From Escherichia phage vB-EcoP-XT32, in sequence record OR757435: DNA of 64,000 bases. One strand, written 5' to 3'. The position numbers were made by a program, and so were the translations under genes. The notes under the pieces are model-generated. The model had not been told where the DNA came from. It made no database searches and saw only the letters and a list, made by a program, of their open reading frames with translations. Position 1 is the stretch's first letter. Each line of letters begins with the position of its first letter. This document shows, piece after piece, positions 2,842 through 57,447 of the stretch.

Positions 2842-3103
2842 TAGCTACTCGCAAGTCTTCATTAGCACGAGCAAGGCGCAATACTTCATGGTTGAGATTC
2901 TGAAGACGCTTGTTTCTGTCCTCTACTTGCATAATAAGATCATTAAGCGTTGCTTTAACTTTCTCATTATACATCTCATCCACTCGGACTAGAGATCTAT
3001 ACATTCTCTCCCAGCTTGCTGCTTTGTTTCTGAGAACAATAAATCCTATAACGCTGATAGTTAAACAGCTTACAAAAAGGAATTTATATACTTCTAAAGT
3101 CAT
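2807..3103 (-). CDS. hypothetical membrane-anchored coiled-coil protein
   Basis: 98-aa ORF; hydrophobic N-terminus (FLFVSCLTISVIGFIVL) then charged helical region. Confidence 0.45.
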   Translation of the reverse strand: MTLEVYKFLFVSCLTISVIGFIVLRNKAASWERMYRSLVRVDEMYNEKVKATLNDLIMQVEDRNKRLQNLNHEVLRLARANEDLRVAIAKQQEINSES

Positions 3104-3302
3104 ATTATTTACCCTTTATCAGAGATTAAAAGTAATATTATTTAAGTAAGTTATATTTAGTAAACTTATTTTCTAAGAAATTTTCAAAGGGTCTATATAC
3201 AGAGCATTACCCATAGTCCCAGAATACTACCATCTTTTTCAATAAATTTACTAAGTGGTTGGTTTATAAAGGAATTTAGTTTGTCAAATCTGGCACTAGT
3301 GA

Positions 3303-3692
3303 TTATTCCCTAGAGCTATTATCGAACACTAAATCACCACAATACATAGGATTGGCATACCATTTTGGCACCCCTTCGCTCTTACTCTGAAAGTAAGTCC
3401 CACTATACAGAGGAACATAATTCTTCTTAAGGGCACGTTTAGCAAGTCGCTCGCTTTCTCCAATGGTTTGCCTAGTCATCGGATTTTTATCACGAACCAG
3501 CTTTACATAACGTTTATAAGGTTTCTCCTGTTTTAATAGTACCGGAATCCACTCAAACTGGTTCTTTTGTCTTATCACCTGTTCAGCGGTCAGTTTTCGT
3601 TGAGCCATTCTATTTATCACGGTATCCGCAACCATAGCTTTACATGCGGTTGGCTGGTCCCCTGCCTCATAATAAATAGTCAATGTCAACAT
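3303..3692 (-). CDS. cell-wall hydrolase, SleB/Hydrolase_2-like
   Basis: IYYEAG...CKAMVADTVINRM, QFEWI and YFQS...WYANP resemble the SleB-type hydrolase signature (IYGEARGE...VA.VI.NR ... QF ... YF.NP). Confidence 0.55.
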   Translation of the reverse strand: MLTLTIYYEAGDQPTACKAMVADTVINRMAQRKLTAEQVIRQKNQFEWIPVLLKQEKPYKRYVKLVRDKNPMTRQTIGESERLAKRALKKNYVPLYSGTYFQSKSEGVPKWYANPMYCGDLVFDNSSRE

Positions 3693-3740
3693 TAGCTGGG
3701 CCGTTGTTATCAGAACTTGCTACCTCCTGTTTTACGGGCA

Positions 3741-3770
3741 TAAAAAAGCCCCAGCCGTAGCCGGGGCAAA
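3741..3770 (-). terminator. rho-independent terminator (minus strand)
   Basis: Minus-strand RNA GCCCCGGC-uacg-GCUGGGGC (8-bp stem with one G-U) followed by UUUUUA. Confidence 0.6.
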
Positions 3771-3932
3771 CCTGAAAGCAATACATGACTATTGCAGTAA
3801 AAACACTCGTAAATGCGCTTACGGCAACGACAAAAGCCGCTCAAAGGCGGCTATGCGGAAGCTTCAAATGGGGAGAAGGCACGACGCGATAGAAAGAGCG
3901 TCATAGTACTAAAAGAGGGGACTATATTCCTA

Positions 3933-4376
3933 CTACTTAACCCTTGCCTCTTTGATGGGGTCAATGTATTTTTCAACTCCCCATTTGTGTTTGCTATCTG
4001 CGTAGAATACATCAGGTGCACACTGACTTGTCTTAGGAAAAGCCTGCGGGTCTTTCGTGCTACCTTTAAATTTCTGTTTACCACGGGTGCGACCATTACA
4101 GAAGATTTCTAACTTCTTCTCCTCTTCTGTTTTAGCTCCCCCGCTCTGTAATAAAGAACGTTTGTGATCGGCTAACAATAACGCATCAGCACGATGGACG
4201 CGATGGCCTACACGTTTTGCCACACTAGAAGGGATATGAGATTCAGCTTCAGCCTTTGCAGCACGACGTTTTAAACTGCGCTTACTGACGTGATTGGTTG
4301 CCTTCGGCTTCTCTTTCTCCAGTTCAGAGATAGAAAAACAACGCCCGCCCTTCATGCTGATTTTAGATTTAGCCAC
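3933..4376 (-). CDS. hypothetical basic protein
   Basis: 147-aa Lys/Arg-rich ORF; no confident motif. Confidence 0.4.
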   Translation of the reverse strand: MAKSKISMKGGRCFSISELEKEKPKATNHVSKRSLKRRAAKAEAESHIPSSVAKRVGHRVHRADALLLADHKRSLLQSGGAKTEEEKKLEIFCNGRTRGKQKFKGSTKDPQAFPKTSQCAPDVFYADSKHKWGVEKYIDPIKEARVK

Positions 4377-18297: not shown

Positions 18298-18338
18298 TCG
18301 ACAAATTAATTATTTAATAGTATAGGAGCTAACATAAC

Positions 18339-19400
18339 ATGGCTAATCCAACTTTATTTGTATCGTATGACCAGAATGGTAAAAAACTTTCTTTTGCTAA
18401 CTGGATTTCTGTTCTGTCCCCTCAGGATACCCCGTTCGTATCCATGACCGGTAAAGAGTCTATCAACCAGACTATCTTTAGCTGGCAGACCGATGCACTG
18501 GCAAGCGTTGATGGTAATAACGCACACGTCGAAGGCTCTCGTGCTGAAGACGGCGAAATGAAACCGACTGTTATCAAGTCTAACGTTACTCAGATTCTGC
18601 GTAAGGTTGTTCGTGTTTCTGACACTGCTAACACCACCGCTAACTACGGTCGTGGTCGCGAACTGATGTACCAGCTGGAGAAGAAAGGTAAAGAGATCAA
18701 GCGTGACCTCGAGAAAATCCTTCTGTCTGGTCAGGCTCGTACCGACGTTCTGGCTGACCAATACCTGACTAACTCTGCCGCTGACCCAGATCAGATTGGC
18801 AAGAACGACACCCATGCAGCTCGTAAGACTGGTGCATTCCAGTTCCTGTGTGCTCACGGTGGTCTGGCTGGCGGCGTTGTTGACAAGACCAAGAATGGTC
18901 CTGCTGACCCGGATACTGGTGCAATCACTGTTAAAGTTGCACAGAACGCTTCTAACCCGGCTACTAACATCGGCTTTGATGAAGCAGATATCTTTGATAT
19001 GACTCTGCAACTGTACACCGCTGGTTCTGAAGCAGATATCATCATGATTAACCCGGCTCATGCTAAGATCTTCGCTGGTCTGCAAGAAAATACTCAGGGT
19101 TCACGTAAGCGTATCTTTGAAAACACCAAGCAGTTCATTTACGAAGTTAACAGCATCACTGACCCGCTGGGCCAGAGCTACAAAATCATCGTTAACCGTT
19201 GGATGCCTACCGATGCAGTTTACTTCTTCCGTAGCGCTGACTGGACTCAGATGGTTCTGCGTGCTCCGAAACGTACTGAACTGGCTAAAGATGGTTCTTA
19301 CGAAAAATGGATGATTGAGATGGAAGTTGGTCTGCGTCACCGCAACCCGTATGCTTCCGGTGTTCTGTTCACTGCTGCGGGAAAGGCAGTGGCGGCGTAA
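18339..19400 (+). CDS. major capsid protein (putative)
   Basis: 353-aa ORF with strong RBS (TAGGAGC), followed by a strong terminator after the downstream extension; position after scaffold. Confidence 0.7.
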   Translation: MANPTLFVSYDQNGKKLSFANWISVLSPQDTPFVSMTGKESINQTIFSWQTDALASVDGNNAHVEGSRAEDGEMKPTVIKSNVTQILRKVVRVSDTANTTANYGRGRELMYQLEKKGKEIKRDLEKILLSGQARTDVLADQYLTNSAADPDQIGKNDTHAARKTGAFQFLCAHGGLAGGVVDKTKNGPADPDTGAITVKVAQNASNPATNIGFDEADIFDMTLQLYTAGSEADIIMINPAHAKIFAGLQENTQGSRKRIFENTKQFIYEVNSITDPLGQSYKIIVNRWMPTDAVYFFRSADWTQMVLRAPKRTELAKDGSYEKWMIEMEVGLRHRNPYASGVLFTAAGKAVAA

Positions 19401-19927
19401 CAGTAGATACCATAACTGTTAGTCCTTCGTCGGTTGCAAGCCTTCCGACGGGGGCTACTCAGCAGTTTACAGCTACAGCACAAATCAGTGATAGCTCCAC
19501 ATCAACAACTGGATTTGTTTGGTCCGTTGAGGGTGGTGGGGCTATTTCTGTTTCTGGACTGTATACTGCACCGAGTGCGTCGCAAGAATCCCCGATTACA
19601 GTGAAAGCTACTAAAGGTGGTAAATCCGGTACATCTACGATCTCAGCTATTGCTGACCCTGAACCTACCCTTGTTAGCCGAGGGCCGATTTCAGGGAAGG
19701 TGGGTGGATCAACAACCGCATTCTCTACTATGTTTACAGCAACAAACTCTACCGGAAGTGACTATACTTTTGAGGTAACTCCTCCGGAAGCGGGCACTGT
19801 TAGTGCAGCTGGTCTTTTGACTCTTGCTGATACTGCTACGGGTGCAGTCTCTGTTACAGCTACACACGAGACTAAACCTCTTGTAACAGCCACTTGTGAA
19901 TTCACAGGTGTAACACCTGCTGCTTAA
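18339..19927 (+). CDS. major capsid protein long isoform with C-terminal Ig-like (Big_2-type) domain, predicted via -1 frameshift at 19379-19385
   Basis: -1 frame after the slippery site reads GKGSGGVTVDTITVSPSSVASLPTGATQQFTATAQ..., a Gly-rich linker plus a Big_2-like pattern; no start codon with RBS for an independent gene until 19601. Confidence 0.5.
19379..19385 (+). other. candidate -1 programmed ribosomal frameshift site (slippery heptamer G GGA AAG)
   Basis: GGGAAAG in the capsid zero frame 14 nt before its stop; the -1 frame is open from 19319 to 19927. Confidence 0.55.
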
Positions 19928-19932
19928 AATTA

Positions 19933-19965
19933 GACCCTGCCTTCGGGCGGGGTTTTTTCGTTTTA
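19933..19965 (+). terminator. rho-independent terminator after the capsid region
   Basis: ACCCTGCC-ttcg-GGCGGGGT followed by TTTTTTCGTTTT. Confidence 0.7.
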
Positions 19966-20028
19966 AGACCTATACAAGCTAGTGTGTAATGTATATTCTT
20001 TGTCTACATATAACAAGGAGGACAACCT

Positions 20029-20541
20029 ATGGCAATGCCAGATTTCAGAGGAGCTTTTACATATAACCCAAATACAGGGCATCTTTTCTGGTCTATGAGT
20101 AACATATTCAATAAACAGAAAGGGCAACGTGCTGGATGTATTAATAATAAGGGATATCGTGTACTAACCTTCAAGAAGAAATCGTACCTAGAGCACAGGG
20201 TCATAGCTGAACTCTTTCTTCCTAAAGTAGAAGGGAAGGATTATGTCAACCATAAGAATGGAATAAAAGATGATAACAGGATTGAGAATCTAGAGTGGTG
20301 TACTCAACAAGAAAACTGTGTACATGCTTATGAAACAAAACTCTCAACACCAAGAAATCTTGAGGATAACCCTAATTCCAAACTTACTAAAGAACAAGTT
20401 CTTTTCTGTTTAGAGAACTATAAACCGAGGGACAGACAGTTCGGAGCTAGAGCTTTAGCTAGGAAGTTTGGAGTCTCTTCAAGTACAATAAGCCTGATAA
20501 TCAATGGCACAAACTGGAAGGAGGTATCCTATGTTGCCTGA
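20029..20541 (+). CDS. HNH homing endonuclease (free-standing)
   Basis: GYRVLTF...EHRVIAELFL...VNHKNGIKDDNRIENLEW matches the HNH_3-type motif; AGGAGG RBS; inserted between capsid and tail genes. Confidence 0.75.
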   Translation: MAMPDFRGAFTYNPNTGHLFWSMSNIFNKQKGQRAGCINNKGYRVLTFKKKSYLEHRVIAELFLPKVEGKDYVNHKNGIKDDNRIENLEWCTQQENCVHAYETKLSTPRNLEDNPNSKLTKEQVLFCLENYKPRDRQFGARALARKFGVSSSTISLIINGTNWKEVSYVA

Positions 20542-56952: not shown

Positions 56953-57447
56953 NNNNNNNNNNNNNNNNNNNNNNNNNNNNNNNNNNNNNNNNNNNNNNNN
57001 NNNNNNNNNNNNNNNNNNNNNNNNNNNNNNNNNNNNNNNNNNNNNNNNNNNNNNNNNNNNNNNNNNNNNNNNNNNNNNNNNNNNNNNNNNNNNNNNNNNN
57101 NNNNNNNNNNNNNNNNNNNNNNNNNNNNNNNNNNNNNNNNNNNNNNNNNNNNNNNNNNNNNNNNNNNNNNNNNNNNNNNNNNNNNNNNNNNNNNNNNNNN
57201 NNNNNNNNNNNNNNNNNNNNNNNNNNNNNNNNNNNNNNNNNNNNNNNNNNNNNNNNNNNNNNNNNNNNNNNNNNNNNNNNNNNNNNNNNNNNNNNNNNNN
57301 NNNNNNNNNNNNNNNNNNNNNNNNNNNNNNNNNNNNNNNNNNNNNNNNNNNNNNNNNNNNNNNNNNNNNNNNNNNNNNNNNNNNNNNNNNNNNNNNNNNN
57401 NNNNNNNNNNNNNNNNNNNNNNNNNNNNNNNNNNNNNNNNNNNNNNN
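56953..57447. other. assembly gap (495 N)
   Basis: Continuous run of n characters. Confidence 1.

Follow-up and report, generated by a model that had tools for sequence, protein, structure and literature searches.

A capsid frameshift that adds Ig domains has already been described for phiEco32-like phages. In SU10, the frameshift was identified at GGGAAAG, and forms of 38.5 and 55.4 kDa were reported from mass spectrometry (PMC4281155). The phiEco32 frameshift is known through a citing paper (PMC7881722) and the GenBank note on phage Paul, whose quoted line reads 'Frameshift at GGGAAAG; Frameshift in PhiEco32 major capsid protein product as well (PMID: 18294652)'; joined capsid CDSs are annotated for Paul and YF01 (GenBank MN045231 and OQ025076). 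A capsid frameshift at GGGAAAG is stated for the Kuravirus-like group as a whole (PMC9965538) and is published for YF01 too, and for Privateer, with the same heptamer, two bands and mass spectrometric detection of a minor capsid protein in virions were reported with citation of phiEco32 and SU10 (PMC7881722). Outside these phages, the minor C-terminally extended capsid protein of T7 and T3 gene 10A/10B is present in heads, as cited in PMC7881722 and PMC9965538, and lambda G/GT slips at about 3.5%, as quoted in PMC9965538.

The locus analyzed here lies in a window of 64,000 nucleotides from Escherichia phage vB-EcoP-XT32 (OR757435), and all of its features described below are on the plus strand. 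The source phage is a Kuravirus (phiEco32/NJ01-like), and the locus is 99.8% identical to that of vB-EcoP-XT18; about 125 GenBank records are similar. In the ORF list, the zero frame of the capsid gene (18339‒19400) encodes a 353-aa, 38.8-kDa protein ending in TAAGKAVAA. Direct reading of the sequence places a Shine-Dalgarno motif, AGGAG (18324‒18328), 10 nt upstream of its ATG, and this is the only ribosome-binding site for both capsid isoforms considered below. The protein matches Pfam SU10_MCP (PF17236) with an E-value of 6e-77 (259.5 bits against a cut-off of 24.1), and residues 1‒352 match the SU10 major head protein (PDB 7Z45) over the full length with an E-value of 7e-233. By these matches, the product is an SU10_MCP-family major capsid protein with the HK97 fold. 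It is 97% identical to the capsid protein of phiEco32 (gp11/gp11-12), which has the same heptamer in the same frame. The phiEco32-type Kuraviruses also share the Gly-rich linker, the Big_2-plus-repeat extension and the terminator, with fusions of 527‒529 aa, whereas the window, on the NJ01/XT18 branch, differs from phiEco32 by a 3-nt insertion (GCA) past the heptamer. Paul and YF01 have longer fusions (892‒894 aa) with more repeats. The Privateervirus genes likewise carry GGGAAAG at the end of an SU10_MCP-type capsid gene and a −1 Ig-like extension, but their capsid protein is 56% identical to that of the window, their stop codon directly abuts the heptamer, and their extension comprises I-set plus Big_2 instead of Big_2 plus the Kuravirus repeat.

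The slippery heptamer G_GGA_AAG is located at 19379‒19385, with codon boundaries G-GGA-AAG in the zero frame, and is the sole zero-frame XXXYYYZ heptamer in the capsid gene. An earlier reading of the sequence alone (hereafter the sequence-only reading) had placed it correctly but 14 nt before the capsid stop; the gap is 12 nt (four codons). The −1 frame has a TGA at 19316‒19318, is open from 19319, and ends with a TAA at 19925‒19927, so that a direct check of the sequence reproduced the open stretch of 19319‒19927 proposed earlier. In the overlap (19386‒19400), the zero frame encodes AVAA and the stop codon, while the −1 frame encodes a Gly/Ser linker, GSGGV. A zero-frame heptamer fell within the last 20 codons in 5.8% of 20,000 codon shuffles of the capsid gene, and a 182-codon open stretch would arise by chance at the local base composition with a P of ~1.4e-4. 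Of the window's 70 mechanical ORFs with 100 aa or more, counted with the artefacts of an N run left out, none besides the capsid gene combines a slippery heptamer in the last 30 codons with a −1 extension exceeding 100 codons.

From this sequence anatomy, the comparative conservation and the published proteomics of close relatives, we consider it very probable that a programmed −1 ribosomal frameshift fuses the capsid protein to Ig-like domains. Most ribosomes would stay in the zero frame at G GGA AAG and stop four codons further on, yielding the 353-aa, 38.8-kDa protein. A minority would slip back one base with GGA and AAG in the P and A sites, and because of this slip the tRNAs would re-pair, Gly from GGA to GGG and Lys from AAG to AAA. 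Reading would then continue in the −1 frame, beginning GKGSGGVTVDTITVSPSS..., past the Gly/Ser linker, first into a clear Big_2 domain and then into a second Ig-like repeat that is divergent, to give a minor 529-aa, 56-kDa capsid isoform. The masses found in SU10, 38.5 and 55.4 kDa, match the 38.8 and 55.95 kDa computed here and thus support the frameshift. The minor Ig-bearing isoform put forward by the sequence-only reading is therefore supported by anatomy, conservation and the relatives' proteomics, and its likeness to T7 10A/10B holds for mechanism and placement, a −1 frameshift near the 3′ end of a podophage capsid gene. T7/T3 gene 10 belongs to another capsid family, and has another slippery sequence and a short extension (~50 aa).

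The arrangement is widely conserved. We compared the locus with those of phiEco32, NJ01, ShigP1, SDYTW1, Paul, YF01, SU7, ECBP2, KBNP1711, several metagenomic contigs, P59 and CsaP_009. All 19 distinct Kuravirus-like sequences examined, which come from independent isolates and metagenomes, retain the heptamer in its frame together with the open −1 extension. GGGAAAG is also found in the same frame in the Privateervirus genomes P59 and CsaP_009, whose extension is another kind of Ig module, so that the conservation of the heptamer, suggested earlier as a check, is observed in both groups. Since the only indel among relatives near the site is 3 nt long, both frames are preserved there, and the −1 linker stays rich in Gly and Ser (GSGG, GGG, GSSG or GGS). 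The open Ig-like extension ranges from 171 to 547 codons, with modular growth to 374‒547 codons in some Kuravirus-like variants found in metagenome and viral pattern scans. Other matches in the pattern scans (L029, L030, L034‒L036, L047 and L048) were rejected as chance, with −1 stretches of 18‒57 codons and no capsid context. In relatives at a greater distance, the heptamer differs or a second capsid paralog, a long one, is present.

The same long protein would be produced by transcriptional slippage, in which RNA polymerase adds or drops a base at the GGGAAA run, and the cited proteomics fits either route. However, the homopolymer runs here are just 3 nt (GGG and AAA), while in bacteria and phages RNA polymerase needs runs of about 7‒9 A or T to slip productively. 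What is conserved is precisely the zero-frame X_XXY_YYZ, which is relevant to tRNA re-pairing alone, and more distant relatives carry other tRNA-slippery heptamers, A_AAA_AAG and C_CCA_AAA, at the same place. We therefore regard slippage of the polymerase as exceedingly unlikely.

The −1 extension (19382‒19927) comprises 181 codons from the re-read Lys, followed by the TAA; 180 of these lie past the Lys codon, and the fusion would have 529 aa and a mass of 55.95 kDa. The profile search suggested by the sequence-only reading, which had seen a Gly linker running into a Big_2-like pattern, gave a match above the cut-off: residues 7‒79 of the extension (19403‒19621) match Pfam Big_2 (PF02368) with an E-value of 1.4e-7 and 31.8 bits against 22.8. 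This first domain also weakly matches residues 349‒418, the C-terminal region, of the major capsid protein chain in PDB 6QVK (E-value of 6e-4). We take this protein to be gp8 of phi29, a phage with a prolate head whose surface displays the C-terminal Big_2 domain of the capsid protein. In contrast to the window, its domain would be in frame on every subunit without recoding, and its capsid body has no detectable sequence relation to that of the window in the PDB search. The second, divergent repeat (19661‒19924) resembles Big_2 weakly; searched alone, it scores 18.6 bits (E-value of 0.0018), under the Big_2 cut-off of 22.8. A profile of nine repeats gave weak PDB matches only, to residues 400‒460 of tail tube protein pb6 chains and to intimin (E-values of 0.04‒0.35), and a single-sequence AlphaFold2 prediction of the 180-aa extension had a pLDDT of 41, an unusable model. 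In its second half, the extension is thus Ig-like at best, by weak resemblance. By manual parsing, repeats of this type occur in about four copies in phage Paul.

Differences between this extension and that of phiEco32 number 43, 41 and 104 at the first, second and third positions of the −1-frame codons, from which a nucleotide identity of ~64% was computed. Since Big_2 is matched above the Pfam cut-off and the differences are in excess at the third position, the extension is, on comparative grounds, coding in the −1 frame and under purifying selection. These features bear on the view that the locus is a decaying gene, in which a frameshift mutation, or an error in sequencing, interrupts an ancestral in-frame capsid-Ig fusion and the Ig part is no longer expressed. 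In-frame capsid-Big_2 fusions do exist in the distant relatives SeKF_80, A24 and BUCT695. SU10, in which a 1-nt insertion shuts the −1 frame after 13 codons (also PMC9965538), shows that the extension can be lost. However, the same frame arrangement in 19 distinct sequences, the selection on the −1 frame, the recognisable Big_2 domain and the modular growth of the extension would be unexpected for an unexpressed remnant, and we give decay hardly any probability.

A free decoration protein, bound non-covalently to the capsid, would result if the Ig-like ORF were a separate gene, translated from GTG 19601, from a non-canonical start or by termination-reinitiation past the capsid stop. Most GenBank records so annotate the ORF (phiEco32 gp12, SU7, XT18, NJ01 and SU10 gp10), and phages of the phiEco32 clade carry a GTG 11 nt past the capsid stop, where some independent or re-initiated translation is possible. 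The SU10 cryo-EM study found no head density for the extension or a minor capsid protein, and treated gp10 as a possible separate, minor capsid protein (PMC9509320); the absence of density is offset by the 1-nt insertion that closes the −1 frame in SU10. Against a separate gene, the annotated starts differ among records, and the first start codon of the −1 frame varies in place between relatives, with no single conserved site. The window lacks both start codons used by annotators, having ATA at the position of the phiEco32 GTG and ATC at that of the NJ01/XT18 ATG. Its −1 frame has no ATG, GTG or TTG before position 19601, where the sequence-only reading had put the first internal start; the position stands, but the codon is GTG and not ATG. 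No Shine-Dalgarno motif is present within 20 nt upstream of this GTG, nor before any other candidate start. As anticipated earlier, a start at 19601 would truncate the domain, since it lies inside the first Big_2 domain and nearly all of that domain would be lost. A separate gene would also leave the conserved Gly/Ser linker upstream of the annotated starts without a reason for being kept, and does not account for the 55.4-kDa capsid form reported from mass spectrometry of SU10 (PMC4281155). Relatives with a separate Ig gene and its own start, named earlier as a finding that would speak against fusion, are present in database annotation but absent from the sequences, because the candidate starts are not kept across relatives. 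Independent expression of the Ig-like ORF is thus improbable, and we favor the ribosomal frameshift.

At the canonical spacing of 5‒9 nt past the heptamer, shuffling and covariation revealed no statistically convincing stimulatory RNA structure. The minimum-energy fold of 19386‒19470 has −29.7 kcal/mol and a z-score of −2.4 against shuffles. Within this fold, a possible hairpin A (19394‒19424, GGC-G-UAACAGU pairing with ACUGUUA-GUC) begins 8 nt past the heptamer, or 5 nt past it in phages of the phiEco32 clade. Folded alone, hairpin A is no better than shuffles (z-score of −0.6), and it gives no evidence of covariation since each of its pairs is either unchanged among relatives or altered on one side alone. 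Hairpin B (19420‒19457) starts 34 nt downstream of the heptamer, within the Big_2 coding region, and its core, GUCGG (19429‒19433) with CCGAC (19445‒19449), is 100% paired in 14 distinct sequences. The pair 19432-19446 occurs as G-C, A-U or U-A, and 19433-19445 as G-C or U-G; these compensatory changes couple an amino-acid replacement (P/L/Q/E) with a synonymous change in a Ser codon. Of the downstream structure whose conservation the sequence-only reading proposed to check, the nearby hairpin lacks covariation and the covarying one is 34 nt away. No Shine-Dalgarno-like motif was seen by eye in the 20 nt upstream of the heptamer, and a synonymous diversity scan of 18 fusion sequences showed no dip at codons 337‒366 (0.17‒0.22, compared with means of 0.14 for the capsid and 0.28 for the extension). 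Mirzaei et al. described for SU10 a hairpin that encloses the heptamer, which was considered here as a stimulator and rejected; it has −13.6 kcal/mol but a z-score of −1.0, its pairs vary on one side only, and its 5′ arm would lie within the ribosome during the slip. In the Lahexavirus-like and Privateervirus downstream regions, each has a hairpin ~6 nt past the site, none of which beats shuffles (z-scores of −0.7 to −1.4). Just past 19927, the strong terminator pointed out earlier was confirmed. This intrinsic terminator (19932‒19965), closing the capsid transcription unit, consists of a hairpin (19932‒19955; 10-bp stem with six G-C pairs and a 4-nt loop; −17.2 kcal/mol, z-score of −3.5) and a T-run, and a terminator is annotated at the equivalent position in the SU10 and Paul records.

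The heptamer of lambda G/GT is identical to that of the window, but it lies in a tail assembly chaperone gene instead of a capsid gene and its product is not a virion component. To our knowledge, slipping in lambda G/GT has no strong need for downstream structure, and it reportedly occurs at ~3.5‒4%; by analogy, the slip frequency at the capsid site may be a few percent. Trypsin would give no diagnostic junction peptide, since both isoforms would share the tryptic peptide ...HRNPYASGVLFTAAGK and the one that follows it in the predicted fusion has ~74 aa. The junction would instead be covered by TAAGKGSGGVTVDTITVSPSSVASL, a chymotryptic peptide, and TAAGKGSGGVTVD would be carried by chymotrypsin or Glu-C/Asp-N peptides.

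Since the annotation and Ig-display points are already familiar for this group, the finding confirms existing knowledge and does not extend it. The records of XT18, XT73 and NJ01, the closest GenBank relatives of the window, give a truncated "Ig domain protein" or nothing, and a joined 529-aa capsid CDS would be the better annotation. The frameshift rate of Kuraviruses could be set by hairpin B, a hitherto unreported element in that case, perhaps jointly with hairpin A within a three-way junction that begins directly behind the heptamer. Across the wider prolate-podophage group, the need for an Ig-decorated capsid subunit in sub-stoichiometric amounts may be ancient and may be met interchangeably, by at least four candidate slippery sequences (G_GGA_AAG, G_GUA_AAG, A_AAA_AAG and C_CCA_AAA) or by a duplicated capsid gene with in-frame Big_2. 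Taken jointly, the hairpin as rate-setter and the ancient, interchangeably met requirement form a tentative reading that we think somewhat doubtful. Because the capsid C-terminus bears the extension, the Ig-like domains would be expected outside the prolate head and are probably exposed on its surface, a natural C-terminal display site of interest for phage engineering. When only a minor part of the capsid subunits displays them, Ig-like domains are believed to mediate weak adhesion to cell surfaces or mucus, and those of this phage may have such an adhesive role.

The major capsid gene of the window (353 aa, 18339..19400; coordinates here refer to the plus strand) is preceded by AGGAG at 18324-18328. 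Its zero-frame product, with a computed mass of 38.79 kDa, matches Pfam SU10_MCP (E 6e-77) and can be aligned over its full length with the structure of the SU10 major head protein (PDB 7Z45; E 7e-233). The gene has a single XXXYYYZ heptamer in the zero frame, GGGAAAG at 19379-19385, read as G|GGA|AAG, and codon shuffles placed a zero-frame heptamer within the last 20 codons in 5.8% of cases. The sequence-only reading, which proposed a -1 programmed frameshift joining the major capsid protein to an Ig-like domain, located this heptamer correctly but set the stop 14 nt away; the measured spacing is 12 nt, and the zero frame continues through four codons (AVAA) to TAA.

The -1 frame, closed by TGA at 19316-19318, is then open to the TAA at 19925-19927, as had been claimed. 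From the slip it starts GKGSGGVTVDTITVSPSS... and runs for 180 codons past the Lys, giving a fusion of 529 aa and 55.95 kDa. At local composition, an open stretch of 182 codons has P ~1.4e-4, and none of the window's other mechanical ORFs of 100 aa or longer has both a terminal heptamer and a long -1 extension. The strong terminator described just past the stop is indeed predicted, as a hairpin at 19932-19955 followed by a T-run. The same reading held that no start with a ribosome-binding site precedes an ATG at 19601; no earlier ATG, GTG or TTG was found in the -1 frame, but the codon at 19601 is GTG. This GTG falls within the Big_2 domain, and no Shine-Dalgarno motif was found upstream of it. 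Apart from this codon and the heptamer-stop spacing, the earlier description was accurate.

The Big_2 pattern suspected in the -1 frame was recovered by the HMM search, with residues 7-79 of the extension scoring 31.8 bits against a Pfam gathering score of 22.8. The second half of the extension (19661-19924) is a divergent repeat that falls short of this score when searched alone (18.6 bits); a 9-sequence profile of it gave weak matches to tail tube protein pb6 chains (residues 400-460) and to intimin. An AlphaFold model from the single sequence was unusable (pLDDT 41). In comparisons with phiEco32, ECBP2 and YF01, the differences in the extension cluster at the third positions of -1 frame codons (43/41/104 against phiEco32), showing that this frame is translated and under purifying selection. 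The capsid body evolves much slower than the extension, with amino-acid diversity mostly <0.1 vs 0.15-0.37.

The heptamer has the sequence of the lambda G/GT site, G_GGA_AAG, which slips at a rate of a few percent. A_AAG is very shifty because the single Lys-tRNA of E. coli pairs better with AAA than with AAG. The 85 nt 3' of the heptamer fold into a predicted two-hairpin junction (-29.7 kcal/mol, z -2.4). Hairpin A (19394-19424) is separated from the heptamer by 8 nt, or by 5 nt in phages of the phiEco32 clade, and is weak when folded alone; since it is invariant among relatives, it gives no covariation signal. Hairpin B (19420-19457) lies in the stretch that encodes Big_2. All of its pairs can form in each of 14 distinct sequences, a small and related sample in which pair 19432-19446 occurs as G-C, A-U and U-A and pair 19433-19445 as G-C and U-G. 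Hairpin B thus appears to be maintained by compensatory changes within this sample, in which a silent substitution in a Ser codon is matched by one that alters an amino acid (P/L/Q/E). By itself, hairpin B, starting 34 nt downstream, is too distant from the heptamer for a classical stimulator. No local dip in synonymous diversity was seen around the slip site.

The window, XT18, XT73, NJ01 and phiEco32 all belong to Kuravirus (Gordonclarkvirinae). Over 1,652 nt, the capsid region shares 99.8% identity with Escherichia phages vB-EcoP-XT18 and XT73, 94% with NJ01 and 86.6% with phiEco32. The expected conservation of GGGAAAG was found in all 19 distinct capsid-plus-extension sequences compared (GenBank phages, IMG/VR, metagenomes), in the same frame and 9 or 12 nt ahead of the stop. 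An Ig-like continuation of the -1 frame (180 to 547 codons) follows in all but SU10, where a 1-nt insertion closes the frame after 13 codons, as likewise noted in PMC9965538. The only indels beside the slip site in this set are of 3 nt, and the overlap in the -1 reading remains Gly/Ser-rich (GSGG, GGG, GSSG, GGS). Where records annotate a separate Ig gene, its start codon is not conserved: the window has ATA in place of the GTG of phiEco32 and ATC in place of the ATG of NJ01 and XT18, and the first start of YF01 is at yet another position. Between the window and XT18 there are three differences in 18339-19990 (19486, 19589 and 19684), all within the extension, and that at 19486 (C in the window, G in XT18) turns the Met codon annotated as the start in XT18 and NJ01 into Ile. 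Extension lengths are modular (180, 374, 439, 445, 545 or 547 codons; noted in relatives L005, L006, L031-L033 and L038) and, by manual parsing, differ in how many copies of the second Ig-like repeat they hold; in Paul, YF01 and L038 the C-terminus is formed by an additional, distinct domain.

The gene order, as in phiEco32, is portal, small ORF, scaffold, major capsid, Ig-like ORF, adaptor and tail fibre. An HNH_3 endonuclease ORF (170 aa, 20029-20541; Pfam E 4.4e-13) follows the capsid terminator and precedes the SU10_adaptor gene, overlapping the start of the latter (~20531) with its 3' end. XT18 also has this ORF, which is missing from the corresponding site of NJ01, phiEco32, Paul and SU10 and resembles a mobile homing-endonuclease insertion. 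Elsewhere, a stretch of 495 N (56953-57447), either masked or unsequenced, produces spurious ORFs and false heptamers in mechanical scans, and ARAGORN found no tRNA genes in 1-64000.

Earlier work has already described the capsid frameshift in this phage group. In SU10, GGGAAAG was recognised by Mirzaei et al. 2014 "as in phage phiEco32", and capsid forms of 38.5 and 55.4 kDa were reported by MS (PMC4281155). For Privateer, Corban and Ramsey 2021 describe both the signal and the presence of the minor capsid protein in virions, and they state that phiEco32 and SU10 had been seen to make the frameshifted product (PMC7881722). According to the YF01 paper, the capsid protein of "YF01 and other group phages" occurs in two forms, the longer gaining an Ig-like domain through slippage at GGGAAAG (PMC9965538), and GenBank records of Paul and YF01 contain joined CDS features, Paul's note citing PMID 18294652. 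Extra density on the SU10 head was not seen by cryo-EM (PMC9509320), consistent with its truncated extension; the study also shows that prolate head assembly does not need the extension. Considering the site, frame layout, conservation and literature, we regard the observation as confirmed and the capsid-Ig -1 frameshift as very likely in the window, where its value is mainly correct annotation.

In more distant relatives, the Privateerviruses P59 and CsaP_009, whose capsid is only 56% identical to that of the window, keep GGGAAAG immediately adjoining the stop but carry a different module, I-set plus Big_2, so that the recoding site is conserved and its cargo exchangeable. Candidate slippery sequences occupy the same position at the capsid gene end elsewhere: G_GUA_AAG, not a canonical X_XXY_YYZ, before an Ig-like -1 extension in Lahexavirus-like contigs and LAh_9; A_AAA_AAG before 44 codons in one IMG/VR contig (L027); and C_CCA_AAA before an Ig_3/I-set domain in Escherichia phage PJNS034. 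In the relatives' own coordinates, they lie near 3912 (L022-L024, L010, L025), 3921 (L027) and 3885 (L014). Most extensions behind the candidate sites match Ig-family Pfam models, and no frameshift annotation was seen at these sites in these relatives. A slip site is missing from Salmonella phage SeKF_80, Cronobacter phage A24 and Aeromonas phage BUCT695, which encode two tandem SU10_MCP paralogs, a short plain one and another that ends in an in-frame Big_2 tail at its C-terminus (1984-2922 and 3001-4770 in L012, 2992-3930 and 4011-5096 in L013, and 3001-3972 and 4049-5281 in L011). With the paralog pair, the same two capsid isoforms are reached by a different genetic route, and its presence without a slip site suggests that selection acts to keep a plain capsid subunit together with an Ig-tailed one.
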